Virus record (IMG/VR): IMGVR_UViG_2508501111_000003
Coordinates: 14,762 to 78,761 of that record
Origin: a virus
Taxonomy: Duplodnaviria; Caudoviricetes
Strand: one strand, 5' to 3'
DNA length: 64,000 nt
Position numbers and translations under genes: made by a program. Position 1 is the first letter of the stretch, and each line of letters begins with the position of its first letter. Positions 1 to 37,596 of the stretch are shown here, in pieces. Below the pieces are notes generated by a model. The model was not told the DNA's origin and did not search any database. It saw only the letters and a list, made by a program, of their open reading frames with translations.

Positions 1-230
1 CCGCTCGCATGGTTGTACCCCAAGGCGGCATGGTCGGCACGATGGCCAATGCGTTGCCAACGAATCAACCATCTGCGCCGTCGATCATCAATCAGATCAC
101 CATCGATGCGCGACAGGCCACCAATCCGGCAGCCATCAAAGCCGCCGTTGAAGAAGTCTGGAACAAGAAGATGAAAGATATTTTGGGCAGCGCCACCATC
201 CGGCTCAAAACCAATCCATTTGGCAAATAA
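1..230 (+). CDS. Tape measure protein C-terminus, unit A (5'-truncated by window)
   Basis: MVVPQGGMVG...KTNPFGK is nearly identical to the C-terminus of the TMP at 31029-35072. Confidence 0.9.
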   Translation, partial: ARMVVPQGGMVGTMANALPTNQPSAPSIINQITIDARQATNPAAIKAAVEEVWNKKMKDILGSATIRLKTNPFGK

Positions 231-266
231 CCAACCAAACCCTACCGCCTAAAGGAGGCGGCTTGT

Positions 267-1640
267 ATGACCACAATGCAACTTCTGCGCAATGGCAGTG
301 TCGTGATCGACTTCATGCCTAGCGTAAATCCAACCGAAGGAACCACCTGTTATTGGCTTGTTGATGGCTCGTGGCAGCCGCAGGTTCCCCAACGCGACCG
401 CCGCTTGATCTCCAATGGCGAACAATTAATGCCCAGTGTGCAATCGTTCGCCGTGAATATCTTTGGGGGAACCAATGAAGATCAGGCGTGGGCCGCCTAC
501 CACGCGCTCATGGTCTTGCTCGATGATGCCGAACGCTTCTATGAGGAAGGCTATAGCAGTGCTGTGGTGTGGCGCACCAAGCCCAGCGACAATACCGTCC
601 ATAGCGATATGCTGGTGATGGGCCGCGCTGGCGATACGCCCATGGTCGGTACATCGCCCACGCTGATTCAAGATAACGATGTCTGGTGGATTCTCAATGT
701 GCCCGTGACGTTTCTCTGCCGCCCGCTGCGCTGCGCAACCAGTAGCGTGAGCAGCAGCACCAGTGCCAGCGCCAATATTGCGACGATTCATCAGCCCACT
801 TTCAGTGGCAGCGCCGCACCCATGGAAAGCCCAACCAACCTGACCTTGAACGTGGCCGCAGCCACGAATGGGGCAACCATCAATGGCCTGATTGCCGTGG
901 CTCCACGCGGTAAAATGGTCAAATCGGCGGCGTGGTTGTTTGCGCCCAGTCCCAGCGTGGGCGGCTGGTCACGCCAAATTCAAGCATCCGGCGTGTACGC
1001 CTCCGATAATCTGGTCTGTTTCTACAACTTCCCCAGTGTCACGCCATCCTATTCGCCCAACGGGGTCTTGACCGACATTGGCGCAATGAATTGCCGATCG
1101 GTGATTCAATGGGCCATGCTGCGCACGACCGCACCATTTCTCATTACGCCCGTGGTGCGCAGCAATGGCGCACTGATCGAAGGCCGTGCCACCCTCGTCG
1201 ATAGTGCTACCCCAATCATTGTGCCACTTGGCCAAACCAGTTCACCCTACCTGATTAGCGGCCATCAGCTCAAGCTGACCAACCTAACCAACGCCGGAGC
1301 GATCTATATCAATGCCATCCTGACCATTGCCGCCGATGCAGGCGGCTGGAGTGTGATTCCCTTCGCGTCGCTGCCGCTGCCCAGCACGGCCACCACGATC
1401 ATCGTCGATGCGCGCTATCTGAGCAATCCCGATGCGAGTTTGACGTGGACGAATGCCGGTGTAACCCAAGCCGTTCCGACCGATAGCAATCCCTTAGTGC
1501 TCACGAAGGATCTCCAGCTGGATGTCAACATCTTTGCCGTGAATGGCAATTCATGGAGTGCCACCGCCGAAGGTTCTGCCAGTGCTCGCACGATGACCGT
1601 CCAAGCATCACGCCTCAACAGCGCGATTATCCCACTCTAG
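267..1640 (+). CDS. Phage tail protein (distal-tail position), unit A
   Basis: 457 aa, GGAGG RBS, directly after TMP, near-identical paralog of 29568-30944. Confidence 0.8.
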   Translation: MTTMQLLRNGSVVIDFMPSVNPTEGTTCYWLVDGSWQPQVPQRDRRLISNGEQLMPSVQSFAVNIFGGTNEDQAWAAYHALMVLLDDAERFYEEGYSSAVVWRTKPSDNTVHSDMLVMGRAGDTPMVGTSPTLIQDNDVWWILNVPVTFLCRPLRCATSSVSSSTSASANIATIHQPTFSGSAAPMESPTNLTLNVAAATNGATINGLIAVAPRGKMVKSAAWLFAPSPSVGGWSRQIQASGVYASDNLVCFYNFPSVTPSYSPNGVLTDIGAMNCRSVIQWAMLRTTAPFLITPVVRSNGALIEGRATLVDSATPIIVPLGQTSSPYLISGHQLKLTNLTNAGAIYINAILTIAADAGGWSVIPFASLPLPSTATTIIVDARYLSNPDASLTWTNAGVTQAVPTDSNPLVLTKDLQLDVNIFAVNGNSWSATAEGSASARTMTVQASRLNSAIIPL

Positions 1641-1649
1641 GAGGGGTTC

Positions 1650-3329
1650 ATGCAGTACGCAATCTCACTCTATGACCCCTTCACGAACGTGCAACTGGCA
1701 CGGTTTGATCGCCAGGTCACCGACGCAACCCTGAGCACCAACGGACTGACCGCCAGTGTGCGACTTGCGCCCTTTATCGCGAAAACCTTGTACGCTCAAG
1801 CGCGGCTGTTGACTGCCGTGGTACAGCGCAGCGATGGTAAAATCCTGCGCTATCGCACCGTCACCCTACGCCTGATTGATCAGGGCTTGGCGCTTGAATG
1901 CCATACCCTGATCGTGGCGCTCGATGATCTGGAGTACGATGGCTGGTGGTCAGTCACCACGCTGGATGGTTGGTTGCCCGTTGAAACCACTTCGTCCACA
2001 CCCGAGCGCTGGGAGATGCGCCACGATGATGGCACGATCAGTTTGTCGCCGCGCAAGAATGAACAATTTAGCAACGCCAAGGGGATTGGTCGTCAGTCGC
2101 TCTTCATTCCGGCGAATCTGAACACCACCGGATTCCAAGTTATCCAATTCGATTGGCGCTCGAAAGGCCCCACCAATTGGCTGGCAACCTTCCTCGCTGC
2201 CGAGCGCGATTACAGCAGCCAAACCGGAGCGACCACGATTGCCCTGGGTAATGGCACAGCCCAAACCGGATCGCTGTGCTTCACCTTCGCGGCGCGGCCC
2301 CTCGTCAGTGTTGCGATGTATTACAACGCCGCCCTCGCCACCTATATCGGGGAAACAGGCGATGATTACCTGAAGATCAGCAACCTGCGCGTGGCCACGG
2401 TCACCACGAACATGGTCAACACGACCACCAGCGGTGCAATTGCCATTGGCACGGCCTTTGTGCCCGTGGCGAGTACCCTCAATATCGCGGTTGGTCAACG
2501 CCTGACCATCGAAAGCGGTGGGGTGAATAGCGAGAGTGTGGTGGTCTTGGCCGTCACCGCAACCCAATTCCAAGCCACCTTTACCAAAACCCACGTCATC
2601 GGCAGCACCGTGCGCGGAATTGTGGTCACGGATAAAGAGATTGTGGAGGATGTGTTGAGTAAGGCCCTGGCAACCAACCCAACGAGCGGGATCAAGCAGA
2701 GCAGTGCGCGGATCAGTAAGAGCAGCCGCGATTGTTTGGAAGCGGTGTGGTCAGCCGCATCCGGCTTAAGCGTGGTACAGGAGCTGGCTGCGCAGGCGCA
2801 ATATGTGACGTATGTGGACGATGCGCAATACCTGTACTATGGCCCCAAGGAAGTGGGCCGCACGTTCGCCTTGGTCGATGGCTCGATTGAACTGGAGAAA
2901 GCGCTGGGTGAGGCGACCAACCAAGTGCGGGTTGGCTATAAAAACGCCAGCAACCAACCGCTCTATACCGCCTTCGCGGAACACGCCAGCGAGCGCTATG
3001 CCTTGGGCATCGTTCGCCAGCGCACGCTTGCCAGTGAAACCACCGATGCAACCGAGGCGGCCACGTTGCGCAGCGTCGCATTGACCGATGCCGCGCCCAC
3101 CGTTCGCGCCAGTCTGGGCGTGCGAGCCGTGCGCAATGACTACAACGTGCGTGAGCCGCTGGATACGCTAACGCGGGGTGATGTGATTACCATTGGCGAT
3201 TTGTCCGGCGCAATCAACAAACGAAGCTACACGCTGGCTGAAACCTCGGTTAATTTGGTCACGGGTGAGGTATCCGTAACGCCCGAAGCGCCGATTAAGC
3301 AGCTCGATCGGTGGCTGGCGCAGGGCTAA
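1650..3329 (+). CDS. Phage minor tail/baseplate hub-like protein, unit A
   Basis: 559 aa, last gene of the tail operon, near-identical paralog of 27879-29558. Confidence 0.75.
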   Translation: MQYAISLYDPFTNVQLARFDRQVTDATLSTNGLTASVRLAPFIAKTLYAQARLLTAVVQRSDGKILRYRTVTLRLIDQGLALECHTLIVALDDLEYDGWWSVTTLDGWLPVETTSSTPERWEMRHDDGTISLSPRKNEQFSNAKGIGRQSLFIPANLNTTGFQVIQFDWRSKGPTNWLATFLAAERDYSSQTGATTIALGNGTAQTGSLCFTFAARPLVSVAMYYNAALATYIGETGDDYLKISNLRVATVTTNMVNTTTSGAIAIGTAFVPVASTLNIAVGQRLTIESGGVNSESVVVLAVTATQFQATFTKTHVIGSTVRGIVVTDKEIVEDVLSKALATNPTSGIKQSSARISKSSRDCLEAVWSAASGLSVVQELAAQAQYVTYVDDAQYLYYGPKEVGRTFALVDGSIELEKALGEATNQVRVGYKNASNQPLYTAFAEHASERYALGIVRQRTLASETTDATEAATLRSVALTDAAPTVRASLGVRAVRNDYNVREPLDTLTRGDVITIGDLSGAINKRSYTLAETSVNLVTGEVSVTPEAPIKQLDRWLAQG

Positions 3330-3333
3330 ATAA

Positions 3334-3374
3334 AACAAGCGTGCAGGTGGGAACATCCCACCTGCACGCTTGTT
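3334..3374 (+). terminator. Intrinsic terminator ending the unit A late operon
   Basis: Perfect 19-bp stem AACAAGCGTGCAGGTGGGA-aca-TCCCACCTGCACGCTTGTT just after the stop codon. Confidence 0.9.
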
Positions 3375-3587
3375 TGTAAAATCCGGCCAAAACTACCACA
3401 CCTTCAAGAGAAAATGTTTTCTTGGGTTGATTGATGGAGTGCTTTTTGCTACATCTCTTTTTTGTATAGTACAACCTCGCATATTACTCATGATATAGTA
3501 GGCATGGGTTCATTCGATTATATACATCCTGTGCGACAGGTTTGCCCATATATTCATTCACATCCCCTATGCACTTAAGCATCTAAG

Positions 3588-3974
3588 ATGGATAAGGAAT
3601 TTCTAGCCATGACTACCCACATTCTCGTGGTTGACGACGAACCCTCCATACGAGAGTTGTTCGAAGACGTTTTAGGTGATGAAGGGTATGTCGTACACAC
3701 GGTTGCAACCGGACACCAAGCCTTAGCAGTCTATCAGACGATGCCTCTTGACCTTATTTTTATCGATATTATGATGCCTGAGATGGATGGCATAACCCTC
3801 TGTCGGCGCATTACCACTATTCCCGGGATGACTCAGCCTCCCATCATTCTCATGAGTGGAGGGACAACCGTGACCACGATTGATGGCCCGTATCAAGCAT
3901 TTCTTGCCAAACCGTTTGACTTAACGAATCTTCTTCAGCTTATCCATACACTACTCAGTTCGGAACAATCATAA
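3588..3974 (+). CDS. Stand-alone response regulator receiver (CheY-like)
   Basis: ILVVDDE, DLIFIDIMMPEMDG, LAKPF motifs. Confidence 0.92.
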   Translation: MDKEFLAMTTHILVVDDEPSIRELFEDVLGDEGYVVHTVATGHQALAVYQTMPLDLIFIDIMMPEMDGITLCRRITTIPGMTQPPIILMSGGTTVTTIDGPYQAFLAKPFDLTNLLQLIHTLLSSEQS

Positions 3975-4205
3975 TGCAACGCAGAGCACCAACCATACAG
4001 GAACAGTGGACAAATGTAGATGATTATCCCTCGTATGAACCAAACACGCACGCTGGATTGTGGTTCATCCATCACAGGATCAAATACTGAGTCAATGAGT
4101 TCGCTTAAACGATCCGCCCAAGAAGAGCTTGTCATTCGTTGGCGCTATCTGATGTATTGCCGTCTAAAGACCAGTTATTAAGCAACTCGACCCATTGAAA
4201 CAGTC

Positions 4206-4508
4206 TCATCCATGAGCACCTGCCCGCACTTTCTGATAGAAGGATAAATATAAATCCACAATCAACTCAAAACCTTCTACAGTTATCGCCCCAGCAAGCG
4301 GCTGATTGGCCCCACCACCCATACCGCCATAGAGCGCAAACGCTCGGACTAAGGCATGATACTCATCGAGTAAATCCCCTACCACATCACGATTAACGAG
4401 GAGTAATTGCGCATAGGCTCCTCGCAAACGGTGCTCGTACCGATATCCTAAACAGAGGCTCCGAATACCAGTCCACAGGCGGGCAACTTGATGTTCATAG
4501 GTGGGCAT
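4206..4508 (-). CDS. Hypothetical protein, paralog of 27450-27779
   Basis: GGAG RBS; shared R(L)xGAY, LVxAFAxxGGxGG and GFxxIxxLYL motifs. Confidence 0.75.
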   Translation of the reverse strand: MPTYEHQVARLWTGIRSLCLGYRYEHRLRGAYAQLLLVNRDVVGDLLDEYHALVRAFALYGGMGGGANQPLAGAITVEGFELIVDLYLSFYQKVRAGAHG

Positions 4509-4679
4509 AGCTCCCTCGCAGTCGATAGATCACCAAATAACCGCATTACCCTCAGCCGTTTGGTCAATCCTTATCGGCCTTTCACACCCATAACAAGCAG
4601 TATGGTTTCACCATACTTTTACTCTCACGCTCACTCTACCCGAGCATGTTCGAAGGCCATTTGAATAGTCCATCATTCT

Positions 4680-5060
4680 TTATACTGCGGCATTGTCGTT
4701 GGATACCCGAAGGAGTTGCTGGATCATCAGAAGCAGATGTCCAAGATCAAAGGGTTTCGCGAGAAAGCTACCCGCGTGGTGATCAAGGTTCAGGGCGAGT
4801 TCATTGTGGCCACTCATAACAATGATGGGAATCCCACGCGTCGCCTCGTTGCTCGCCAACAGTGATCCAATGGTACCGCCATCACCATCAGGGAGGTTGA
4901 CATCCGTGAGAATTAACTGGGGTATCTGTTGCGCAAAATAGGCCATCAATGCACCTACCGAGGTAAGACTGATGACCGCATAGCCTTCATCCGCTAAAAA
5001 TTCCTCTAAAACGGCAACAATGGAATGATCATCTTCAACAATGACAATGGTGGGCTGCAT
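4680..5060 (-). CDS. Stand-alone response regulator receiver
   Basis: IVIVEDD, LILTDVNLPDGDG, LAKPF motifs. Confidence 0.92.
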   Translation of the reverse strand: MQPTIVIVEDDHSIVAVLEEFLADEGYAVISLTSVGALMAYFAQQIPQLILTDVNLPDGDGGTIGSLLASNEATRGIPIIVMSGHNELALNLDHHAGSFLAKPFDLGHLLLMIQQLLRVSNDNAAV

Positions 5061-5299
5061 ACGACCTCATTGGTCTCGATGGTGCATTTAAGAATCTTCT
5101 TCGGGTTCTACTATGCCATAGATGTGCTCATGAATCAAGCACTGTCTAGCTAGAGGTATAGGAATACCACACAAACGCCATGGGTCGAACTGCAAGAGCG
5201 GAGCCAACACTCTTTGAAGGGCGCTATCAGTCTAGACAGAGACGTTCCGTCATGAACCAACCGACGATTATAGGCTATTCCCAAAGGCGCATAGGAGGT

Positions 5300-5761
5300 T
5301 TATTGAAACGCTGCGCAATCATCACGATAGGTGTGCACCCATCGCAGCGGTGAAGGCTGACAGGTATTATCCATCGAGCATATGAGGCAGCAACGGAAGG
5401 GGGTGGCTTGACAATGGCCACATTCCCAGCAGGTATAACCAGCGCATAATCGCAAGATTGATTGTTCCATGAGATACCCATGATGCCTGTTGCGCTCAAC
5501 CATCCAAAGGATGTGTGATTGTTCATTCATCACCGTGGCTGTTTTGATACCGGGGTTGGCCACGACTATCGTATCGACCAGCGCAATTAAGTGTTCAACT
5601 GATTCACTAGAATCAGGAATATAGTAGGTTAATGTTTCGTTGTACCGATACTGAATACACGCATAGGGTTTCCTTACTTTTGCCGCATTCATCGCCGTGC
5701 GAACGGCATTGATGCTCCCATCAGAGAAATCGCCTGCGTTGGCAATATCAAACGTTTGCAT
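5300..5761 (-). CDS. Hypothetical protein with C-terminal Zn ribbon, paralog of 54943-55419
   Basis: CxxC...CxxC; PDxxESxEHLI motif shared with the paralog. Confidence 0.7.
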   Translation of the reverse strand: MQTFDIANAGDFSDGSINAVRTAMNAAKVRKPYACIQYRYNETLTYYIPDSSESVEHLIALVDTIVVANPGIKTATVMNEQSHILWMVERNRHHGYLMEQSILRLCAGYTCWECGHCQATPFRCCLICSMDNTCQPSPLRWVHTYRDDCAAFQ

Positions 5762-6037
5762 ACGCGCCTTTCCGCCATCGATTGCGATTTGTCAACCGAC
5801 CGATCATCATTGATCCCACGCGGGGATAGTGTGCATTCAGGAGTTCTTTTTTGATCGCCGTAGTGGAGTAAACATCATGATCGCCCATTCCTAGTATGCC
5901 GTGTTGGTACGTGATGAGCCGTGATGCTCCACCCACGCTACGTTAAGATCTCCCAACGGGTCAAATGAGCACTATCGGCTCTACCACGGCGGAATCAGCG
6001 AAGAAGTGCCTGGACATGGAACGACAAATCTGTTGGA

Positions 6038-6186
6038 ATGTGATCACTGTCGGCGATTTTTCTGGTGCAATCAATAAACGCAGTTACACACTAGCAGAAA
6101 CCTCAGTCAATTTAGTGACAGGCGAGGTGAGTGTTACGCCGGAAGCGCCAATTTAGCAGCTGGATCTGTGGTTGTCGCAGGGCTAA
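6038..6186 (+). pseudogene. Displaced 149-bp 3' fragment of the last tail gene
   Basis: Aligns without gaps to 3181-3329, mostly synonymous changes, AAG>TAG stop at 6154-6156. Confidence 0.9.
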
Positions 6187-6233
6187 AAACCAAGGAGCAC
6201 GTGAAAAATTCCCACGTGCTCCTTGGTTTTTTT
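6186..6233 (+). terminator. Terminator following tail-gene fragment 1
   Basis: AAAACCAAGGAGCACGTG / CACGTGCTCCTTGGTTTT stem with T tract. Confidence 0.85.
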
Positions 6234-6251
6234 GTGCTTCAATGCTGGGCA

Positions 6252-7247
6252 TCAAGCATGGGTTGAGGGTGGTATGGTATCGGGAGTCATCGTCTGCGGA
6301 TGTTCCCGTAGATCTCGCCATACATCATGGAGTTTCCACCCAGTACTCAGAAGAATTATGCTCCATGCTCCCGTCATCATCAGCCAGTGTGCATGGTGAT
6401 ACACGGGATAGGTTAGTGCAATTGATTGCTTAAGTGATATCGGGGTTGTTTTATTCGATTTTCGCTCGTGATAGGTATCAAGTGGGACACTCGTCGTAAC
6501 CGTAATTAAGATCAGGACAACCGCACTCACCCAGAGTGCTGGTAATGCGCACGAGCGTGCGATATTCCACCACACAAGAGCGCTCATCCCAAGAATAAAA
6601 CAAAAGAAGACGCTCATGATCATAAACTGGATGTGCGTCCAGAACCCAGCTTCAATAAATGACGCATCCACATGGAGTTGTGCTAGGATTGTATCAAACC
6701 ACGCAAAGACTACAATCCCCACTGCAATACGCGTTACTCCAAGGAGCCAGAGTATCCACGTCCATCGGTAAGCACGTGGTTGCTGATTGGGGTCATAGGT
6801 TCCAACCCCAAGATAGAGAACACTGGCGATCAGGATTGCGATGGCTCCACCGATCATCCACTCCGGACCATCAAGCGAACGATGATAGTGTTGTGCCCAT
6901 GTATTGTCAGATGGCTGCGGGATGAGCGAGATATCGAGCATTCCACGAAAACGCCCGATCGGACGGCGCGATGCAACACCAGTCAATACCAGCAATCCAG
7001 CAATCCCCGCAATAGACATCCACCCAAGTCGCCAACGCTGATGATAGGCAATGCCACTAAAGACCAGTAGCAGGAGAAAGAGGATGTGTTCACCAAAATA
7101 CAGGAGGATGTTATGATCGTAATACGAGGTGGTGAGCGGAGCCATAAACTGTGTATACCGAATAAGGCCAACCTGCATACCAATAACCCCAATGACCCAG
7201 AGAAGGCCAGCACACCAACGGATAGCGATACGCCAAGAAGTAATCAT
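6252..7247 (-). CDS. Multi-pass membrane protein
   Basis: AGGAGG RBS before ATG 7247; 331 aa with many hydrophobic segments. Confidence 0.75.
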   Translation of the reverse strand: MITSWRIAIRWCAGLLWVIGVIGMQVGLIRYTQFMAPLTTSYYDHNILLYFGEHILFLLLLVFSGIAYHQRWRLGWMSIAGIAGLLVLTGVASRRPIGRFRGMLDISLIPQPSDNTWAQHYHRSLDGPEWMIGGAIAILIASVLYLGVGTYDPNQQPRAYRWTWILWLLGVTRIAVGIVVFAWFDTILAQLHVDASFIEAGFWTHIQFMIMSVFFCFILGMSALVWWNIARSCALPALWVSAVVLILITVTTSVPLDTYHERKSNKTTPISLKQSIALTYPVYHHAHWLMMTGAWSIILLSTGWKLHDVWRDLREHPQTMTPDTIPPSTHA

Positions 7248-7398
7248 ACACAACCTCCTTCGTGTAGTGAGTATAGAAAGCCACTCGCTGAATGTGAATG
7301 ATAGGATTATGAAATATCGAGTTGCGGGGGAACAGATGGTAAGCACTAAGGATGAGTTGATTGTGGCATTGAAGCTGCTGCAAGTATGTGCGCTATAG

Positions 7399-7464
7399 AG
7401 CGCATAGTTGGGTGGAAGCCGCCGATCTGCATTGACAGTGCCAGTCGGCGGCTCTTGTGTGCCC
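7399..7464 (+). repeat. 66-bp hairpin element, inverted copy at 26085-26150
   Basis: AGCCGCCGA...TCGGCGGCT stem around TTGACAG; aligns to the reverse complement of 26085-26150. Confidence 0.8.
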
Positions 7465-7673
7465 TGAGCGTGCTATACTAGCAAACCGTTGCCGCGTGCT
7501 TGCACCAGCATTCGGTAATAACTAACAAACAGGCCACCCCTGATCAGACTGTGCTATCAACTGATCAGATGTGGCCTGTTTGAGTAACAAAAGTCCATTA
7601 TCTTGAAAGATAATGGACAAAAGAAAAACCCACGCCGTGTGGTGTGGGTTTTGTGATCCTCGCGAGAGGATGT

Positions 7674-7739
7674 GGTGAGGTGGCGGTTACGCCCGAAGCC
7701 CCGATTAAGCAACTCGACCTGTGGCTGGCACAAGCCTAA
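7674..7739 (+). pseudogene. Displaced 66-bp 3' fragment of the last tail gene
   Basis: Aligns to 3264-3329 and encodes GEVAVTPEAPIKQLDLWLAQA*. Confidence 0.88.
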
Positions 7740-7748
7740 AAGAAACAA

Positions 7749-7775
7749 GAGCACGTGGAAAATTTCCACGTGCTC
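7749..7775 (+). terminator. Hairpin following tail-gene fragment 2
   Basis: GAGCACGTGGAAA / TTTCCACGTGCTC, same family as the 6186 hairpin. Confidence 0.75.
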
Positions 7776-8225
7776 CCTCGCATAGCCACCAACCCAACCA
7801 TACCTGTTCGCACCTTACCAATTGAACAGGTTCGCGATGAATTCCCAACGAGCGATAGCGGCTCCCCATGGGGCATCCACGGTACTAGCACCCATGCTGG
7901 TGTCGTTCGGCTGCGCAGGGTTGGTATACTTCCTGCTGCATCTGAGGGAACACCGAAGGAGGCTTTGCATGGACGTAAGACACTAGCTCCGCGCACGAAC
8001 GACACCGCCGCACGAAACCGGATACAAGAGTGCACGACTCTTGCAGTGTGAGACAACGACGGTCATCTGCTCGGGAGGGATAGTGCTTGTCTGGCAAAGG
8101 ATGTCGTGCCCATCGATGCAGGCGACAATGGGCATCGTCACCTCGATGGAACACGACCACCACAGGCACGGTTGATGAGCAGCCCCGCACCGAGGCAGGA
8201 GACCGTCCCACCCAAGGAGCGATTA

Positions 8226-8468
8226 ATGCCCCGAAATACGTTTCCATACCGCTTTCAGCCCGTCCGCCGTGGTGATGTGATTTACCTTCCCAACGGCACG
8301 ACCGTGCCGATGATCCATGGTGGGTTGGTGGTTGTGTTTGGTGACTGTGTGCTTGGCCCTTTTCGTTCCCGCCATATTGCCGAGATCGAGGCCAGTTACC
8401 ATTCCCAAAAGTTGCTCTTGCCTGATGCCATTCCTGCCGTTGGTGGTAGGTTTGGTCTGATCAGCTAA
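8226..8468 (+). CDS. Small hypothetical protein
   Basis: AAGGAG RBS, 80 aa. Confidence 0.55.
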   Translation: MPRNTFPYRFQPVRRGDVIYLPNGTTVPMIHGGLVVVFGDCVLGPFRSRHIAEIEASYHSQKLLLPDAIPAVGGRFGLIS

Positions 8469-8912
8469 CCCGTCCATGTGGCATCGTCATACCCATCATA
8501 CGTCATCACGGGATGGATGGGTATGACGATGCCACACTGACCTCTTGGTGTCTGGCCTGCGCATCAAGCAAGGAAATAGTTGGTGAACCTTTACATCACA
8601 CCACGCCCCTGATCGAACTGTGCTGCAACCGATCAGGGACGTGGTGTTTTTTAGCGCCTCAATTTATGGATTCACTGGGCGGAGCCGCCAACTGCTGATT
8701 AATGATATCCATCAAAATATGTCGATGGGCTTCAGTCGATAAGATGCGACCCTGCAACGCCAACTGCGTCGAAGAGTTCGCCATTTGAGAGATCGTCAAT
8801 GATTGCCTCGATCTGGGCCAGTGCTTCATGTTTCTGCATGATGGACTCCTTCTATAGATTCTTAGTAAGAGCCACACGAACGCGATTTCTGGCATGAATG
8901 GGGAAATATCCG

Positions 8913-8970
8913 CTAAAACCACAAACGGCTCGCAAATCGGAGCCGCTTGTGGGAGTGAAGAGAGAGGAGG
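8913..8970 (-). terminator. Terminator copy 1 (family shared with 11333 and 19199)
   Basis: CACAA-CGGCTC...GAGCCG-TTGTG stem with the same purine-rich flank as 11333-11385. Confidence 0.8.
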
Positions 8971-9154
8971 ATATGAATTTCGATAGTCCTAGTATACCCA
9001 TCAGTTCGTGCCATAACGAGGCCTATCAGTCCTTAACATTCATGACACTGGTACTAGCATTGTCTAGTCTTTTTTTATGGGAGCCATCTATAGCATCATT
9101 GAATGCACACCTGCGAACTCATACACTGCTATTTTGTCGCATCGCAGCCATCCA

Positions 9155-9655
9155 TCAGTACTGCGATCCATCGTGATCAAGCGGAATTCCAGCCAAGACT
9201 GATATTAATAGTTGCTCCATATCGGCCATGTTCAGCCAAAAGAAGCCTAAATTTGATTGCGATCTGAGGACGGTAATAACAATATGACTATGAATTGGTC
9301 GAATGCTACAAAACCCCTCTGCCGTTCGGATCAAACTTTCTTCGGTATGCCCTAATCCAACGCTCTGTGCCACCTTATCAGCAATGCGTAACCATGGCCC
9401 ACTAATCGCCGTAACCTGCATCACATTCAGATGATCGGGTAACGTTGACGCAAGCACATCACCAGCACTATTCATTAAAACAGACCCAAGAACCCCTGGC
9501 GTGACATGGGCTAATTGGGTAAAGAGTGTTTGGACAACACTGGTATGATCAAATGTTGGGAGTGGAACAATATAGTCGGTAGAATCGCCCTTATCCGACG
9601 AGAGGGAACCACCTAACGCAGTCATAATTTGATGCAATGAGTTTGGTTGAGTCAT
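9155..9655 (-). CDS. Roadblock/LC7 (MglB-like) domain protein
   Basis: TPGVLGSVLMNSAGDVLAS, GLGxxEESLIRTxxG and SNLG pattern. Confidence 0.8.
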   Translation of the reverse strand: MTQPNSLHQIMTALGGSLSSDKGDSTDYIVPLPTFDHTSVVQTLFTQLAHVTPGVLGSVLMNSAGDVLASTLPDHLNVMQVTAISGPWLRIADKVAQSVGLGHTEESLIRTAEGFCSIRPIHSHIVITVLRSQSNLGFFWLNMADMEQLLISVLAGIPLDHDGSQY

Positions 9656-9896
9656 AGCAGAACATCCTTGTTGCTACCGAGCAATTGCCGTATCCATTCG
9701 CGTGGTGATGGTAATCCTAGGAACTGCAACTAACGAACAACCTTACGCACATTTGAGGAATCCAATAAGTACCTATATTAATATATACACGTCTCTATAA
9801 AACTATCTCTTGCCTCATTGAATCCATATCTTTCTAACCGAATCCTAGCCAGAATGGTTGTGCGAAGTCATATAATCACCTTTATTTGGAGGATGT

Positions 9897-11303: not shown

Positions 11304-11332
11304 ATTGAACTCCAATGATTAACGTTCACAGC

Positions 11333-25849: not shown

Positions 25850-26084
25850 GCGGGGAATGGTGGGGGGCGTGCGCGTTTATCAAGCAGCACGCTCCGGCTT
25901 GGTAGCAGTGCGGGTTTTACTTTTGTCCACTATCCCTCAAGATGCTGGAATTTTATCGCTAAAACACCACGACCCTGATTCGGGCTGTGCTATCAACCGA
26001 CCAGGGTCGTGGTGTGAATTGTCATTTTGCTCGTGAGCCTGCGCAGTATCCTACGAGCGATTGCAGTATATCATAGCGACTTTG

Positions 26085-26150
26085 GGGCTTACAAGAGCCG
26101 CCGATTGGCACTGTCAAGGCTGATCGGTGGCTTTCACCCAACTTGCGCTA
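26085..26150 (-). repeat. Hairpin element, copy of 7399-7464
   Basis: Alignment by eye. Confidence 0.8.
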
Positions 26151-26192
26151 CGAGGGCGCACACGGTTGCTTAAGCAGCTTGAGTGTCATAGG

Positions 26193-27143
26193 CTAGTCAA
26201 CGAATTGGTTTTCGGATGTCTTACTCCGAATGATGCCTGCAAACAATAAGAGCGCTTCACGAAACTTGTCATGCTCGACTACAACGAGCTTGTGTAATCC
26301 GTCTAATGTGTGCGGTTGATTCGCGGATGTTGATATGGCTCCTATGGGTCGTGGCGATAACTCATGTATCAAGGCATTTCGCAATACTTTCAGTTCACTG
26401 GTCTTGCCTATATAAGCTATGCGTATCTTATTGAACGCGTCAAAAAAATAGCATTGGTTATCATTCCCTTTAATCTTTGTAGGGATACTTTCATCAAATA
26501 ATGTTTTCCATTCACTATCTTTTTTAGGAGGTATCAGACCAAAGTATGCGGGAAGCGCATATTTTGTAAGTCGCTCCCAGGATGATGTGATTCTTATAAT
26601 ACAGTTTTCTAGATACGTCCATGCTCGTAATATGCCAATATTAACTTGGCTCATACTGATTATATTTACATTGGCCCCTAATTTCTTTCTTCGGTTTTTA
26701 TACCTCTGCAAATCTGATAGATTCAAAAAATCATAAACACCTATATCTACCCACTGATTAAATAATGTATCAATCTGGGTTTCTGGGTACAAAAATCGCC
26801 CAAATCCCTCAAGGTTACAATTGATAAGCATAAACTGGCTGTCTATTTCCAGAGCTATTCCAACGGTTTTAATACGGTTTTTCATTTCATCATCAAATAC
26901 GTGCCATGCACTAGGCCAAGACTTTTGGTATGTTATTGATTTGCGGATAACCTTATTGTTGCCATCGAGCTTGGCCGGAAGCCCATAAAGATAGAGGGCA
27001 TGGAGGTTTCTTAAATTTGCACGAATGCTCTCTGGTATGTCGATCACTGACTCTTCTTGTTTATGAGTTTCATGAGAGGTTTTCGTCCATCGTACTCCTA
27101 TACCCATTACGGATTCATTTTCGTTGATATTGAGATCTTCCAT
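26193..27143 (-). CDS. Putative HEPN-domain RNase
   Basis: LRNALIH (RxxxxH) motif in a helical C-terminal region. Confidence 0.6.
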   Translation of the reverse strand: MEDLNINENESVMGIGVRWTKTSHETHKQEESVIDIPESIRANLRNLHALYLYGLPAKLDGNNKVIRKSITYQKSWPSAWHVFDDEMKNRIKTVGIALEIDSQFMLINCNLEGFGRFLYPETQIDTLFNQWVDIGVYDFLNLSDLQRYKNRRKKLGANVNIISMSQVNIGILRAWTYLENCIIRITSSWERLTKYALPAYFGLIPPKKDSEWKTLFDESIPTKIKGNDNQCYFFDAFNKIRIAYIGKTSELKVLRNALIHELSPRPIGAISTSANQPHTLDGLHKLVVVEHDKFREALLLFAGIIRSKTSENQFVD

Positions 27144-27449
27144 GATGCCCTCCCAGCATTATCCTGTCAGAACAACAATGCGGCGTTAATGATAAATATA
27201 TGACATCTTCGCTTGACCTACTAGGCTGCATGAACCAATACATGCCGTTTAATACTCTATTAAGAGTGTTGGTACACTCAAATGGCCGCTAGGCCGCTCT
27301 GGCAGTGGTGCGAGGGGTGTTTGTGGTAGTGCAGTCGTAGTGAAGCTGTAGTGCAATGGTAGTGAAACGGTAGTGCAGTGCGATTGAGGGATTGACCAAA
27401 CGGCTGTGGCATGATTGAATTGTGGGGAAACATTTTGTTGGGGGTGGCT

Positions 27450-27779
27450 ATGACAAGGTACGAGCAACCTTTATTCCAGCTTCGAGACGGGGTAGGCCGT
27501 TTATGCTCTAGTGGTTCACTAGATGAGCGACTGGACGGTGCTTACGGGCATTTTGCCGCAACGTCCCTTTTCTTTACTGCAATAGATGATACAGCAATCG
27601 ACACATTAGTTGCGGTGCGCGATGTCTATTCCCGTTTAGTGGAAGCATTTGCTGTTCATGGCGGGCGAGGTGGGTCTGACCATGAATCTATAAAAGGCGA
27701 TTTAACACCAGCAGGTTTTGATACAATCGCGCAGTTATATCTAACTCTTTATGATACACTACGAGGCCAAGACCTCTAA
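27450..27779 (+). CDS. Hypothetical protein, paralog of 4206-4508
   Basis: Motif similarity; equivalent position, antisense and downstream of the tail operon. Confidence 0.7.
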   Translation: MTRYEQPLFQLRDGVGRLCSSGSLDERLDGAYGHFAATSLFFTAIDDTAIDTLVAVRDVYSRLVEAFAVHGGRGGSDHESIKGDLTPAGFDTIAQLYLTLYDTLRGQDL

Positions 27780-27878
27780 ACGACAAAACGACGGTCGCCG
27801 GAGCGCACACGCCGTTTTGTGGAAGCATCACTTCATATCAAGGAGTACTTGGTACTACCCCAAGTGCTCCCTTCTTTA

Positions 27879-29558
27879 TTAGCCCTGCGCCAGCCAGAGA
27901 TCGAGTTGCTTGATCGGTGCTTCGGGCGTAACACTCACCTCACCTGTCACGAGATTAACCGAGGTTTCCGCCAGTGTATAACTGCGTTTGTTGATCGCAC
28001 CGGATAAATCGCCGATGGTGATCACGTCGCCCCGACTGAGCAGGTCAAGCGGCTCTCTTACGTTGTACTCATTGCGCACGGCGCGGACACCCAAGCTGGC
28101 GCGAACGGTCGGTGCAGCATCGGTTAGGGCTACACTGCGCAACGTGGCCGCTTCGGTCGCGTCGGTGGTTTCGCTGGCAATGGTGCGCTGGCGGACAATG
28201 CCTAAGGCATAGCGCTCGCTGGCGTTTTCCGCAAACGCGGTATAGAGTGGCTGGTTACTCGCGTTTTTGTAGGCAAAACGTACCTGATTGGTTGCCTCGC
28301 CCAGTGCTTTCTCTAACTCAATCGAGCCATCGACCAAGGCGAAGGTGCGGCCCACTTCTTTAGGGCCAAAGTACAGATATTGGGCATCGTCAACATAGGT
28401 GACATACTGCGCCTGATCAGCCAACTCCTGCACCACGCTTAAGCCCGATGCAGCCGACCATACGGCTTCCAAACAATCGCGACTACTCTTGCTGATCCGC
28501 GCACTGCTCTGCTTGATCCCGCTACCCGGGTTGGTTGTGAGGTTGCGGCTTAAGACATCCTCCACAATCTCTTTGTCCGTGACCACAATCCCGCGCACCG
28601 TGCTGCCCAGAACGTGGGTCTTGGTGAAGGCGGCTTGGAATTGGGTCGCGGTGACGGCCAAGACTACGACGCTCTCACTATTCGCGCCGCCGCTTTCGAT
28701 GGTCAGGCGTTGGCCAACCGCGATATTGGCGGTACTCGCCACGGTCACAAAGGCTGTGCCGATGGCAATCGCGCCGCTGGTCGTGGTGTTCACCATATTG
28801 GTGGTGACGGTGGCCACGCGGAGGTTGCTGATCTTCAGGTAATCATCGCCTGTTTCGCCAATATAGGTTGCCAGCGCCGCGTTGTAATACATCGCAACAC
28901 TAACCAAGGGCCGCGCCGCGAAGGTGAAGCACATGGAGCCAGTTTGGGCCGTGCCGTTGCCGAGGGCAATCGTGGTGGCTCCGGTTTGGCTGCTGTAGTC
29001 GCGCTCGGCAGCGAGGAAGGTCGCCAGCCAATTGGTTGGGCCTTTGAACCGCCAATCGAACTGAATCACCTGAAAGCCGGTAGTGTTCAGATTCGCCGGA
29101 ATGAACATGGATTGACGGCCAATCCCCTTGGCGTTCGAGAATTGTTCGTTTTTGCGCGGAGACAGGCTGATCGTGCTATCGTCGTGGCGCATCTCCCAGC
29201 GCTCGGGCGTGGACGAGGCGGTTTCTACGGGCAACCAGCCATCGAGCTTGGTGACTGACCACCAGCCATCGTACTCCAAGTCATCGAGCGTGACGATCAG
29301 ATTGTGGCATTCAATCGCCAAGCCCTGATCAATCAAGCGCAGGGTTACGGTGCGATAGCGCAAAACCTTGCCATCGTTGCGTTGCACCACAGCGGTCAAT
29401 AATCGCGCTTGGGCATACAGCGTTTTGGCGATGAACGGCGCAAGGCGCACACTGGCGGTTAGGCCATTGGTGCTCAAGGTTGCGTCCGTGACCTGGCGAT
29501 CAAACCGTGCCAGTTGCACATTGGTGAAGGGATCATAAAGCGAAATCGCGTACTGCAT
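27879..29558 (-). CDS. Phage minor tail/baseplate hub-like protein, unit B
   Basis: 559 aa, last gene of the late operon. Confidence 0.75.
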   Translation of the reverse strand: MQYAISLYDPFTNVQLARFDRQVTDATLSTNGLTASVRLAPFIAKTLYAQARLLTAVVQRNDGKVLRYRTVTLRLIDQGLAIECHNLIVTLDDLEYDGWWSVTKLDGWLPVETASSTPERWEMRHDDSTISLSPRKNEQFSNAKGIGRQSMFIPANLNTTGFQVIQFDWRFKGPTNWLATFLAAERDYSSQTGATTIALGNGTAQTGSMCFTFAARPLVSVAMYYNAALATYIGETGDDYLKISNLRVATVTTNMVNTTTSGAIAIGTAFVTVASTANIAVGQRLTIESGGANSESVVVLAVTATQFQAAFTKTHVLGSTVRGIVVTDKEIVEDVLSRNLTTNPGSGIKQSSARISKSSRDCLEAVWSAASGLSVVQELADQAQYVTYVDDAQYLYFGPKEVGRTFALVDGSIELEKALGEATNQVRFAYKNASNQPLYTAFAENASERYALGIVRQRTIASETTDATEAATLRSVALTDAAPTVRASLGVRAVRNEYNVREPLDLLSRGDVITIGDLSGAINKRSYTLAETSVNLVTGEVSVTPEAPIKQLDLWLAQG

Positions 29559-29567
29559 TGACCCCTC

Positions 29568-30944
29568 CTACAGTGGAATAATCGCGCCGTTGAGGCGTGA
29601 TGCTTGGACGGTCATGGTGCGAGCACTGGCGGCATTTTCGGTGGTGGCACTCCAGGCATTGCCATTGACCGCAAACAAATTGACATCCAGCTGGAGATCC
29701 TTCGTCAATGCCAAGGGATTGCTATCGGTGGGCACGGCTTGGGTCACGCCTGCGCTGGTGTAGGTCAAACTGGCATCGGGATTGCTCAGATAGCGGGCAT
29801 CGACGGTGATCGTGGTGGTCGTGCTCGGGAGCGGCAGCGATGCGAACGGAATCACACTCCAGCCGCCTGCATCGGCGGCAATCGTCAGGATGGCGTTGAT
29901 GTAGATCGCTCCAGCGTTGGTCAGATTGGTCAGCTTGAGTTGATGACCCGTGATTAAGTAGGGTGCGCTGGTTTGGCCAAGCGGGACAATGATCGGCGTG
30001 GCACTATCGACGAGGGTCGCACGGCCTTCGATCAACGCGCCATTGCTCCGCACGACAGGCGTAATGAGGAATGGTGCGGTGGTTTTGAGCATCGCCCATT
30101 GAATCACCGAGCGGCTATTGAGCGGCCCAATATCCGTCAAGACCCCGTTCGGTGAATAGGATGGCGTGACGCTGGGAAAGTTGTAGAAACAGACCAGATT
30201 ATCAGTGGCATAGACTCCTGATGCCTGAATTTGGCGTGACCAGCCAAAGACACTGGGACTGGGCGCAAACAACCACGCCGCCGATTTGACCATTTTGCCA
30301 CGTGGCGCGACGGCAATCAATCCACTAATGGTTGCGCCGTTGGTCGCTGCGGCCACGTTCAGGGTGAGGTTGGTGGGGCTTTCCAGCGGGGCTGCGCTGC
30401 CGCTGAAATTCGGCTGATGAATAGTGGCAATATTGGCACTGGCGCTGGTGCTGCTGCTCACACTACTGGCGGCGCAACGCAGCGGACGACAGAGAAAGGT
30501 GACAGGCACATTCAGAATCCACCAAACATCATTGTCTTGGATCAAGGTGGGCGATGTGCCAACCATGGGCGTATCGCCTGCGCGGCCCATCACCAGCATA
30601 TCGCTATGGACGGTGGTATCACTGGGCTTGGTACGCCACACGACTGCGCTACTATAGCCTTCTTCATAGAAACGCTCAGCATCATCGAGCAAGACCATCA
30701 GCGCGTGATAGGCGGCCCACGCCTGATCTTCATTGGTTCCGCCGAAGATGTTCACGGCAAACGATTGCACGCTCGGCTGAAACTGTTCGCCATTGGAGAT
30801 CAGACGGCGGTCACGCTGCGGCACTTGCGGCTGCCATGAGCCATCGACGAGCCAATAACAGGTGGTTCCTTCGGTTGGGTTTACGCCAGCAGGCATGAAA
30901 TCAATCACGACGCTGCCATTGCGCAAGAGTTGCATGGTTGTCAT
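29568..30944 (-). CDS. Phage tail protein (distal-tail position), unit B
   Basis: AGGAGG RBS at 30944, follows TMP. Confidence 0.8.
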   Translation of the reverse strand: MTTMQLLRNGSVVIDFMPAGVNPTEGTTCYWLVDGSWQPQVPQRDRRLISNGEQFQPSVQSFAVNIFGGTNEDQAWAAYHALMVLLDDAERFYEEGYSSAVVWRTKPSDTTVHSDMLVMGRAGDTPMVGTSPTLIQDNDVWWILNVPVTFLCRPLRCAASSVSSSTSASANIATIHQPNFSGSAAPLESPTNLTLNVAAATNGATISGLIAVAPRGKMVKSAAWLFAPSPSVFGWSRQIQASGVYATDNLVCFYNFPSVTPSYSPNGVLTDIGPLNSRSVIQWAMLKTTAPFLITPVVRSNGALIEGRATLVDSATPIIVPLGQTSAPYLITGHQLKLTNLTNAGAIYINAILTIAADAGGWSVIPFASLPLPSTTTTITVDARYLSNPDASLTYTSAGVTQAVPTDSNPLALTKDLQLDVNLFAVNGNAWSATTENAASARTMTVQASRLNGAIIPL

Positions 30945-31028
30945 AAATCCGCCCTCCTTTGGGCGGGGGTTTGGTTGGGTTAATGGTCGTGTGTGCAGGG
31001 TTGTTTCAGCCCTGCACACGGTCAATCG

Positions 31029-34000
31029 TTATTTGCCATATGGATTGGTTTTGAGCAGGATATTGGCGCTACCCAAAATATCTTTCATCTTCTTGTTCCA
31101 GACTTCTTCAACGGCGGCTTTGATGGCTGCCGGATTGGTGGCCTGTCGCGCATCGATGGTGATCTGATTGATGATCGACGGCGCAGATGGTTGATTCGTT
31201 GGCAACGCATTGGACAGCGTGCCCACCATGCCGCCTTGCGGGACGACCATCCGCGCAGCCATGCCCTTGGTTTCTTCGGCGGTGAACACCTCCGCGCCGC
31301 GTGGAATATTGCTAATACCTGGTGGCAGCAGGGCAAAGTCACCACCCCGCGTGCGCATGGCTTCGATGCCTTTCCACGGCTCGGACGCAAAGGCCAAACC
31401 GCCCGCCCAGTTTTTCACGCCGTCTGCTAAGTAGGGAATCAGTGGAATACCACCGAAGCCCAAGGCGGAGCCAACGGTATTCGCGCCTTCAATGAGTTTG
31501 TTGACGGCGGTGATCATCAGGTTGAGTGGGGATTTAATGCCACTGAGGATGCCGCGAAAGGCTTCTACAATCCCGTTGGTAATTTCATCCCACACCGCAG
31601 CACTGGCATCCTTAATCCATTGCCATGCCACCGCAACCCCGTTTTTGAATTGCTCCAAAAAGCCATCAAGGTTGTCGAGCACACCGCCAAACATCGTGCG
31701 GAAGTAGTCGCTGATGCCATCCCACGCGGTGCTGATGCCCGTGCCAATGAGATCCCACGCCACCACCAAGAGGTTCCAGACGACCTCCAGTGCTCCCTTC
31801 ACGATGTCGATGATGCCATTCCAGAGTCCAGCAAAGACATCCTTGATTGCCGTCCATGCGCCTGACCAATCGCCCTGAATCACGGCGCTGACGGTTTTGA
31901 TCACGCCTTGAATCACGCTCATGGCGGCTTCAACGATGCCCTTGATGATGCTCCATGCGCCACTGAGCAGGCCCGTGATCTGGTCTTTGTGGTCGCTGAG
32001 GAAGGTGGCGATGCCGTGGAAGAATGGAATGATCGCACCATTGATCACATCCAGTGCGCCATCAATGACGACCTGAATGGTTTCCCACGCCATCGTCAGC
32101 ACGCCTTTGATTTCTTCGCCGTGCTGCTCGAGGAAGGTTCGGATTGCGCCGAGTGCCGTTTGAATCACCGTGCCAACCGCGCCCAGCACCGTGCTGACAA
32201 TGCCCTCAATCCGGCCCCACGCATTGCGGAGGAACGTCACGATCTGCTCGCCGTTCTCGCGGAACCAGCTGGTGATGATGCCCCACGCGGTTTGTACCAT
32301 GGACTGAATCGATGTAAAGACCTCGGTCGTGATGGTGCGAATAGTGGCGAAATTGGTTTGCCACGCCAATCCCAGCGCTGCGGCTCCAGCTACCAGCAAG
32401 CCCATCGGTGAAACGAGTGCGGCTACCGCTCCCGCCAAACCGGAGAACAGGGACACCAGTCCCATACCCGTGAAGAGTGCCGCAATGCCCATGAATGCGC
32501 CTTTAACCGATTCAATAAACGGGGCGGCTTGGCTGAAGGCGTTGCGAATCCGGTCGATCAAGGACGGTACAGGCGCAGTGGCAGTCGCCATTTCGACTTG
32601 GCGATCCTTCAAATCAGCATAGCGATCGGCGGCTGCCTCGGCTCCGGTGGCTGCATCCTGCATGGATTGATTGGTTTCGTCCGCCCCATCCTTGACCTTG
32701 GTGAATGGTGGAACGAGCGCACCCACGCCTTTGGCTGCTCCCTTGGCGGCTCCGCCTACACCCTTCATCTTCTCGGCTGACGCTTCCAGCTCTTTTTGTT
32801 GCTGGGCTTCGAGCTGCAAAATCTGGGTTTTGATGCGCCAGTATTCGGATTGATCGGCGTTGGTATTGGCCAATTCACCTTGTAGGATTGCTAGTTTGCC
32901 AGCGGTGTCAGCGGTGGCATACTGATAATCCCGCTCGGCTTTGGCCGCTTCGTCCTGTTTGCGTTTGACTTCCTCCAGCTCGCGCTGGCGTTGTTTCTCG
33001 GCTTTGTTAATCTCCTGCTGAATGTCGTTGTATTCGGCGCTGCCCTCGGCATATTGACCCTGTTCTTGGCGCAAGCGAGCTAACTGATCCTCAGTGGACA
33101 TGAGGCTTAACTCATAGTCGCGTTGCTCCTTGGCCAGTTTATTGAGTTCCGCCTGACGTTTCTGCTCTTCCTGATTAATCTGCCCTTGCAGTCGCCAATA
33201 CTCGGCATCGGTCGTAGCATAGGCGGCTTGCTTGTCCTTGAGCATCTGCAAGCGATCGACAGTTCCGGCAATACTGAATGTGTATTCCCACTGCGCACGG
33301 GCCGCCGCTTCAGCGTTCTTGGCGGCATCGTCCATCGGGGATTTGCCACCGCCACCTCCGCCACCACTCGCTTTGGGCTTTTTGGTTTCTTGCTCGGCAG
33401 CTTTAGCCTGCTCCTCGCGAATCTTTTGGCGCAGCTTCAGCGCGGCCAATTCGAGCTTGGCCTGTTCGCGGTCGCTGTCTTTACCACCCGTGCTGTTGAT
33501 CAGCGCCAAGAGCTGCTGTTCTTGGGCTGCTTCCTTGACCCGCTGCTGCGCATCTTCAATGGATTTCAGTTCGGTTTCGAGATAGGCCAGCAAGCCATCG
33601 GTGGGCAGCCGCGCATCATTCCAGCCATCCATCCAGACTTGGGCGGTATCGCGACCCCATGTGTCGATGTTGGGTAATAACTTTGGTGGGGAGTGCGGTT
33701 CAAGCCAGTAGGTGATAAGGTCGCCAATGTATCCCAAGCTATCGACGACCGCACCAGCACCACCCATAATCCCGTTGGCTAACTGGGTGGCAATGTTGCT
33801 GCCCCATTGCACGGCGCTTGATGCGAGGTCAATGAACAGACCAAAGGCTTCGCTCGCGGTGCTGGCAAAGTCAAGGAAATACGGGCCAACCATCTGAACC
33901 GCTGCGCCAATCCGCTCAAACGCTCCCACGACCACGGCGCTGATGCGGGGCATGGCTTCGGCCAACCAATCGGCAAAGGCTTGCACGGTGGGGGCTAACG

Positions 34001-37593: not shown

Positions 37594-37596
37594 GAC

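Follow-up and report, generated by a model that had tools for sequence, protein, structure and literature searches.

The 64,000-nucleotide stretch of DNA analyzed here (the window; positions 14,762 to 78,761 of IMG/VR virus record IMGVR_UViG_2508501111_000003) corresponds to C1:1554136-1618135 of genome G000, on the 6,346,587-bp chromosomal contig of a predatory Chloroflexota, and carries two related sets of tailed-phage genes, units A and B, in inverted orientation. This inverted pair is very probably explained by repeated lysogeny, with phages integrating one after another at the 3′ end of a chromosomal tRNA-Gly(TCC) gene: unit B would be a prophage, phiB, inserted into the end of an older prophage, phiA, of which unit A would be the remnant. 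Prophages stacked at a tRNA site, the older of them decayed, are a known kind of arrangement. The evidence comprises (i) the mirrored repeats, (ii) the attachment (att) cores, (iii) the tRNA gene, (iv) empty sites or single prophages in sister genomes, (v) gene content, and (vi) purifying selection on the mirrored arms.

A sequence-only reading of the window had placed mirrored segments at 1-3329/27879-~31260 and 11333-13110/17473-19251, and these are present with 86-94% identity; BLAST merges the inner arms into one pair (11333-13110 vs 17473-19252, 88.7%). The one-codon indel it reported (FMPSVNP vs FMPAGVNP) is seen in the A/B alignment, and the substitutions are, as it held, largely synonymous. 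Synonymous divergence (dS) of the arm genes is 0.56-0.77 overall, with a nonsynonymous-to-synonymous ratio (dN/dS) of 0.04-0.05; the individual values are dS 0.71, dN 0.036 and dN/dS 0.05 for the Dit-position gene, and dN/dS 0.05 and 0.04 for the last tail gene and the Replic_Relax gene, respectively. The arm-encoded proteins (from the 457/458-aa, 559-aa and Replic_Relax genes) are intact, and their copies appear to have diverged as functional phages under purifying selection. Independent mock-community contigs are 100% identical over window 2390-21303 and 13072-31198. The mirrored arms are neither chance nor an assembly echo, and the view that they are diverged phage siblings in inverted orientation is borne out.

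Unit B, or phiB, is predicted to be a complete siphovirus-type chromosomal prophage of 55,059 bp. Comparison of the G006 and G000 junctions yielded a core, TTGGAGCGGGAGACGAG (17-20 nt; full form TTGGAGCGGGAGACGAG(C/A)CT), that occurs only twice in the whole G000 genome (search allowing up to two mismatches), at window 15108-15127 and 70147-70166. Both copies share 17 identical nt, form direct repeats and are oriented as the tRNA; the span they bound (window 15108-70166) is larger still than the at least 48 kb proposed earlier. A complete virion module, an integrase at one end, direct repeats, and empty or singly occupied sites in relatives are all found, as in an integrated tRNA-site prophage. 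A 93-nt stretch left of the 15108 core (15035-15127) shares 94.6% identity with the end of the G006 prophage nearest the tRNA, and unit A is accordingly taken to be the corresponding end of an older prophage, oriented as in G006. The attL core at 15108 appears to have formerly been part of the attR of that prophage, and phiB is read here as sitting precisely in it.

Unit A, by contrast with the earlier claim of two genomes, keeps only the last ~295 nt of its tape-measure gene, with homology ending 64 nt left of the window. Unit A holds no head, portal or terminase genes and no integrase gene, and the small early genes and repressor upstream of it include no head, portal or terminase genes; a lack of head and packaging genes left of the window is what the sequence-only reading had itself named as telling against its interpretation.

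Sister genomes clarify the orientation of the pair. G006 carries one intact prophage (1379384-1433551, 54.1 kb) with the same cores, tRNA and right flank, in the orientation opposite to phiB. Its map runs from a core through integrase, DnaC-like, AAA_24 and early genes, repressors, a variable region, terminase to last tail gene, cargo, and full dcm, Replic_Relax, 186-aa and 297-aa genes to the second core, beyond which lies the same chromosomal flank as right of the window in G000. Its Replic_Relax end adjoins the tRNA, and G005 and G007 also have that end at the site. G003 holds a complete 52.8-kb prophage between direct cores, with the integrase end adjoining the tRNA and an older-prophage end past the far core, a nesting as in G000; in G002, the integrase end is likewise at the site. 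In G001 and G004, only one core is present, beside a left arm that is native and different, and the sites are empty. Since the cores are direct repeats in tRNA orientation in both polarities, two phage types would carry the core oppositely relative to gene order, and the family appears to exist in two attP polarities, Replic_Relax-proximal or integrase-proximal to the tRNA. This opposite polarity would leave phiB inverted against unit A without any cointegrate.

The genus harbors a ~53-55-kb temperate siphovirus-type family that integrates at tRNA-Gly(TCC). All members have a common gene order: serine integrase, main early operon, repressors, variable region, late operon (terminase to tail tip), cargo slot, and Replic_Relax/dcm operon. 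Its members carry a copy of the last 17-20 nt of the tRNA.

Proposed order of arrival at the tRNA-Gly(TCC) site

The simplest history, as we infer it, is integration in the order phiC, phiA, phiB, followed by a single deletion. An integrase-proximal phage, phiC, would have integrated first and the Replic_Relax-proximal phiA next. The integrase-proximal phiB would have come last, entering the attR of phiA, which would still have offered the core, the tRNA body and a native-like left arm. phiB would then lie inverted with respect to phiA, the two Replic_Relax operons facing each other across the core at 15108. A later deletion, reaching from the phiC early operon to the last part of the phiA tape-measure gene, would have taken the integrase of phiA along with its early, head and packaging genes and most of those for the tail, with unit A as the remainder; in all, it would have removed two integrases, one core and ~35-40 kb of phiA.

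The third remnant, phiC, lies left of unit A in phiB orientation. It retains an amine oxidase copy 95.5% identical to that of the unit A cargo, pieces of an MmeI pseudogene, a variant array of clustered regularly interspaced short palindromic repeats (CRISPR), and dcm, Z1 and HNH genes, and its insertion sequence (IS) has three further identical copies in the genome. A fragment of its last tail gene directly abuts large and small terminase fragments (C1:1539750-1541124; L002 5615-6989); an internal deletion in phiC removed the whole virion module. The small early genes and HTH repressor left of the unit A stub belong to this remnant, whose repressor and early operon run into the tape-measure stub, and where a 230-aa open reading frame (ORF) enters the stub, it does so in a different frame from the tape-measure gene.

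A fourth relative (C1:0.62-0.66 Mb) has 87-89% identity to phiB over 27879-47631 and a split Mu-F gene. A homologue of the 285-aa gene precedes its late operon, and to its left stands a serine recombinase block that is unrelated.

Several points weigh against the proposed history. The phiC/unit A junction is without a core, and the "integrase-to-integrase" stage and the single deletion are therefore reconstructions; the 0.62-Mb relative has a partly different gene order; the att assignment for phiB rests on sequence comparison; and the core is an identical stretch of 17-20 nt at a tRNA 3′ end, yet the sole recombinase in the locus is of the serine type. Identical tRNA 3′-end cores of such size are typical of tyrosine integrases, which are also the classical enzymes of temperate phages and islands that integrate at tRNA 3′ ends and restore the gene. 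The locus resembles these elements in that the core coincides with the final 17-20 nt of the tRNA, which is intact at one junction and partially copied at the other, and relatives have empty sites. It differs in that no tyrosine integrase lies within ~190 kb (the nearest match is at C1:1,816,277) and the only recombinase is a 507-aa serine enzyme with an ORF that reads through the core. This protein, with a PF00239 match at C1:1622898-1623338, resembles CcrB/XisF-type large serine recombinases, and we infer that it catalyzed the integrations. Its ORF stops 114 nt into the tRNA gene, and its C-terminus would be altered by integration because the core is crossed. In the opposite-polarity prophage of G006, the recombinase ORF crosses the reverse complement of the core.

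The tandem prophages prophiT36-2a/2b of Mycobacterium abscessus share one attB, the second phage having integrated into the attR of the resident (PMC9934374). As at the present locus, two different, partly similar temperate phages occupy one site successively, with the core repeated at each junction. Here, however, the second prophage is inverted, from opposite attP-core polarity relative to the genes, only a 15-kb end survives of the older prophage, the site is a tRNA 3′ end, and the recombinase belongs to the large serine enzymes.

Competing explanations for the inverted pair

An initial direct-tandem integration, with phiB later flipped as a block via att sites or other inverted sequences, is improbable, although homologous exchange among the copies has clearly occurred and the polarity of serine-integrase sites is set by the central dinucleotide only. 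With such a flip, the two attP polarities would not be a property of the phages themselves. The perfect direct 17-nt repeats in tRNA orientation that bound phiB are not the pattern expected after a site-specific event in the wrong orientation, and an integrase-proximal prophage with direct cores is found in G003 and an integrase-proximal end in G002.

In-place inverted duplication of part of one prophage (tail tip, cargo slot and Replic_Relax operon), with subsequent divergence and cargo replacement, is very unlikely. It would account for two adjacent, mirrored units, and a 142-nt exact run in the arms records sequence passed between them, but the dS of the arms is very high at a dN/dS of ~0.05. 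Units A, B and the 0.62-Mb copy are about equidistant from one another (dS 0.4-0.8, dN/dS 0.04-0.09), A and B being no closer than either is to this copy 0.9 Mb away, which argues for separate phage lineages and not local duplicates. The att-proximal genes of the unit A and phiB operons are unrelated, the att core lies exactly at the junction, and the end of unit A matches the prophage end of another species.

The sequence-only reading had proposed a cointegrate or dimeric phage-plasmid of about twice the unit size, consisting of two complete related genomes in inverted orientation, which is more improbable still. The inverted arms that suggested it are real, each followed by cargo and a Replic_Relax gene, and more distant homologues of the latter occur on both plasmids of the strain. 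The roughly 99-kb plasmid that it mentioned has a counterpart in the G000 assembly (three contigs of 6,346,587, 339,639 and 99,204 bp), which contains a separate 99,204-bp replicon, but the window is on the chromosome instead. The junction between the units is an att core, unit B carries an integrase and is bounded by direct repeats of the tRNA-Gly 3′ end, unit A is devoid of head, portal, terminase and integrase genes, and sister genomes show empty sites or single prophages at the locus. As in phage-plasmids of the P1, N15 and SSU5 types, a tailed-phage gene set accompanies a plasmid-type PF13814 gene; in contrast to them, the present element lies in the chromosome and has att sites as well as an integrase. 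No partition genes were seen, and the element is not a member of that class.

Misassembly, with the mirrored segments as an artifact of collapsed or misjoined paralogous prophage sequences, is scarcely credible despite several 86-95% paralogues within the same genome and alternative joins in two public contigs (L013 and L045), as independent 18-29-kb contigs span the central junction and the two inner arms with 100% identity to the reference joins, and ~8 of 9 contigs crossing the left arm agree with the reference.

Gene content and the cargo slot

The features of the locus are collected in the table below. The phiB late operon contains a ~0.7-kb segment (41364-42078; ORF 41353-41823) between the scaffold-position and Mu-F-like genes that is missing from the 0.62-Mb relative and the G006 prophage. 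An exact look-up of the tape-measure protein gave no record. The Dit-position protein gave no Pfam, PHROG or PDB sequence match, and neither it nor the last tail protein has a family in PADLOC, NCBIfam or Pfam. A weak fold model of the last tail protein (predicted local distance difference test score, pLDDT, 60) finds its top matches in the lambda, T5 and T1 tail-tip proteins and the tail-associated lysin of phage NF5.

Beyond the late operon, homology to the 0.62-Mb relative stops just ahead of the first copy of a 161-nt direct repeat (47640-47800 and 54652-54812, 89%) that flanks low-GC genes and the CRISPR arrays. The CRISPR repeat type occurs elsewhere in G000 only as a variant array (C1:1533012-1533640) and two repeats (C1:1529679-1529792), both in phiC, and a related prophage in G005 has at least 29 CRISPR repeats in the equivalent slot (C23:442022-444620). 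Compared with the resident prophages, the genome as a whole and the retrieved loci of relatives, the phage-borne spacers gave no match. The ORF at 48741-50867 has no family in PADLOC, NCBIfam or Pfam. At the repressor position, where phiB has five HTH_3 paralogues, G006 has only two HTH_3 genes.

The "relaxase" of both units belongs to PF13814 (Replic_Relax; 34-35 bits against a gathering cutoff of 25.3), a family that has been placed in the PD-(D/E)XK superfamily and equated with MOB_C (PMC3424549, PMC5357655). Nine homologues, plasmid copies included, share the pattern H..E, D, ExDRGT, K, with H122, E125, D163, E204, D206, R207, G208, T209 and K218 invariant. A weak fold model (pLDDT 54) matches MarR-type winged helix-turn-helix proteins and, weakly, FokI. 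General Pfam annotation of the neighborhood turned up no coupling-protein or transfer genes. The copy on the 340-kb plasmid is 55% identical, and a fifth Replic_Relax copy lies at 0.77 Mb.

The order tail, cargo, Replic_Relax operon, described in the sequence-only reading, recurs in both units, and the two cargoes are, as it noted, of similar size and unrelated, apart from short relics and one small gene (34% identical) beside the last tail gene. Its suggestion of a packaging-size constraint is compatible with whole prophages of 52.8, 54.1 and 55.1 kb, but nothing ties such a limit to the cargo slot. Flanked by the last tail gene and the Replic_Relax/dcm operon, the slot measures 7.4-9.3 kb across five copies, with unrelated contents. 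It is a cargo hotspot, defense-rich in three of four units: phiB carries a type IIG restriction-modification enzyme, phiC the MmeI pseudogene and CRISPR array, and the 0.62-Mb copy (C1:629512-637897; L003/L004) a 1093-aa type IIG-like methylase/nuclease, GmrSD and an OLD-family AAA_15+TOPRIM protein. Cargo A holds mostly signaling and redox genes, not recognized defense genes. In cargo B, the ORFs at 19689-20468 and 22111-22629 have no family in PADLOC, NCBIfam or Pfam.

Hotspots for anti-phage defense and moron genes at fixed prophage positions are known, for example, from P2 and P4. The present slot is similar in holding unrelated cargo between two conserved genes in every copy and differs in the mostly signaling and redox content of cargo A and in the displaced tail-gene 3′ ends that mark insertions. 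These displaced ends comprise the terminal 50-60 codons of the tail gene together with the terminator; they lie inside cargo A and in phiC and mark successive cassette insertions. A diversity-generating retroelement was considered for the repeated tail-gene 3′ ends and rejected, as the copies differ by every kind of change and one of them is interrupted by an in-frame stop; no reverse transcriptase domain was found in the neighboring ORFs.

Table. Features of the locus in window coordinates (empty cells, no value given)
Feature	Position	Strand	Remarks
Unit A	-64 to 15107		tape-measure 3′ stub, two tail-tip genes, cargo, Replic_Relax operon
Tape-measure 3′ stub, unit A	1-230	+	homology from -64; includes 142-nt run identical to unit B
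Dit-position gene, unit A	267-1640	+	457 aa, intact, position only; 94% aa identity to unit B copy
Last tail gene (tail-tip/Tal-gpJ-like), unit A	1650-3329	+	559 aa, intact
Cargo A	3330-11332		8.0 kb
Receiver-domain gene, cargo A	3588-3974	+	
Receiver-domain gene, cargo A	4680-5060	-	
153-aa gene, cargo A	5300-5761	-	no PADLOC/NCBIfam/Pfam family
Relic of last tail gene 3′ end and terminator, cargo A	6038-6221		in-frame TAG
331/364-aa gene, cargo A	6252-7346	-	no PADLOC/NCBIfam/Pfam family
Relic of last tail gene 3′ end and terminator, cargo A	7674-7800		
Roadblock/LC7, cargo A	9155-9655	-	
Flavin amine oxidase, cargo A	9897-11303	+	
att-proximal early operon, unit A	11333-15107	-	
157-aa gene, unit A	11439-11912	-	
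Replic_Relax, unit A	12012-12950	-	
88-aa gene, unit A early operon	between Replic_Relax and 205-aa gene	-	
205-aa gene, unit A	13453-14070	-	
292-aa gene, unit A	14137-15015	-	
Putative attL core of phiB, TTGGAGCGGGAGACGAGCCT	15108-15127	+	copy of tRNA-Gly(TCC) 3′ end
att-proximal early operon, phiB	15128-19251	+	
72-aa gene, phiB early operon	15227-15445	+	
285-aa gene, phiB early operon	15445-16302	+	
100/146-aa gene, phiB early operon	between 285-aa and 152-aa genes	+	
152-aa gene, phiB early operon	16874-17332	+	
Replic_Relax, phiB	17633-18571	+	
146-aa gene, phiB early operon	18672-19112	+	
Truncated dcm fragment	19372-19608		3′ of phiB Replic_Relax operon
Cargo B	19252-27878		8.6 kb
240-aa and 105-aa genes, cargo B		-	
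TRADD-N-associated 2TM protein, cargo B	21478-22083		
172-aa gene, cargo B	after 21478-22083		
MmeI-family type IIG restriction-modification enzyme, cargo B	23072-25849		
316-aa gene, cargo B	26193-27143	-	no PADLOC/NCBIfam/Pfam family
122-aa gene, cargo B	27411-27779		
Complete late operon, phiB	27879-47630	-	PHROG and Pfam matches
Last tail gene, phiB	27879-29558	-	
Dit-position gene, phiB	29568-30944	-	
Tape measure, phiB	31029-35120	-	
Tail tube, phiB	36143-36739	-	
Major capsid, phiB	38846-39934	-	
Mu-F-like, phiB	42062-43057	-	
523-aa portal-position gene, phiB	late operon	-	portal by position only
Large terminase, phiB	44634-46067	-	
Small terminase, phiB	45998-46717	-	
Second variable region, phiB	47631-62411		low-GC genes, CRISPR, STAS protein, repressors
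cas-less CRISPR array, phiB	51023-51406 and 53342-54459		37-nt repeat, ~20 repeats
IS transposase	51606-53048		splits phiB CRISPR array
Five HTH_3 repressor paralogues, phiB	59862-62411	-	co-oriented, 26-43% mutual identity, upstream of early operon
Main early operon, phiB	62412-64000 and beyond window	+	
AAA_24 gene, phiB main early operon	beyond window		
DnaC-like loader, phiB	66580-67383		beyond window
Large serine recombinase, phiB	68757-70280 (L006 4757-6280)		507 aa; beyond window
Putative attR core of phiB	70147-70166		beyond window; tRNA-Gly(TCC) 3′ end
tRNA-Gly(TCC)	70148-70222	-	intact at right junction
Inverted arm pair	319-3329 vs 27879-30889		3011 nt, 86% complementary
Inverted arm pair	3-231 vs 31028-31256		94%
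Inverted arm pair	245-320 vs 30891-30966		83%
Inverted arm pair	12005-13110 vs 17473-18578		90%
Inverted arm pair	11355-11930 vs 18654-19229		90%

Exchange between resident copies and its consequences

Sequence has moved between the prophage copies. Units A and B share the 142-nt exact run at the 3′ end of the tape-measure gene, a part in which identity to the 0.62-Mb copy falls to ~55-70%. Unit A and the 0.62-Mb copy are 99-100% identical over ~500 nt of the last tail gene and 84-91% identical around it. This second tract (window ~2000-2500 vs C1:~638.7-639.2 kb) joins tail genes 0.9 Mb apart and points to ectopic gene conversion between resident prophages.

Two public contigs combine the arms differently: L013 joins the unit B tape measure to the unit A tail genes, and L045 joins the left early genes to the first tail gene of unit B. 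Both are 100% identical to their parents and switch inside the 142-nt run, which exceeds the k=127 of the contig names; ~8 of 9 contigs over the left junction in the same study are parental. They are the reciprocal junctions expected from an arm-to-arm inversion, and chimeric assembly is at least as likely a source as a real subpopulation. Contig L010 (JGI 3300014786, 14.5 kb) is noisy, 96-98% identical to the reference with frameshifted genes, and contains cargo B and the unit B tail genes, but the first ~430 nt of its Dit-position gene look like unit A; either another A/B exchange or a mixed-copy consensus accounts for this pattern. Logan contigs from public runs covering window 26000-36000 are 300-500-nt pieces in the repeats, with no joints or informative loose ends at 31028-31322, and are uninformative on inversion, and a 40-mer of the shared run had no match in a metagenome-contig scan. 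An invertible segment of the Gin/Cin/Hin type or a shufflon was rejected, the arms being 3.3-kb diverged gene copies and the sole nearby serine recombinase a 507-aa integrase 38 kb off.

It is rather doubtful, though conceivable, that the 3.3-kb arms are a working recombination substrate and, separately, that the two attP polarities, one of which regenerates a usable attB, stack prophages alternately at one tRNA. If so, a RecA-type crossover within the 142 identical nt would invert the intervening 31 kb, hand phiB the tail-tip genes and cargo of its dead neighbor, and set the phiB att cores inverted, locking the prophage in. Because of the inverted arms, inversions and faulty assembly are both liable to occur in this region, and the strain is common in mock communities.

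In place of a tempting dimeric phage-plasmid, the analysis provides a precise map, with base-level prophage ends, an attachment site and a proposed arrival order, that separates the intact from the debris over ~100 kb of a predatory Chloroflexota chromosome. Three modest points go beyond annotation: a serine-recombinase phage family may target a tRNA 3′ end in both polarities, a used site may be used again, leaving its neighbors inverted, and the fixed cargo slot after the last tail gene gathers defense genes and keeps the scars of earlier insertions.

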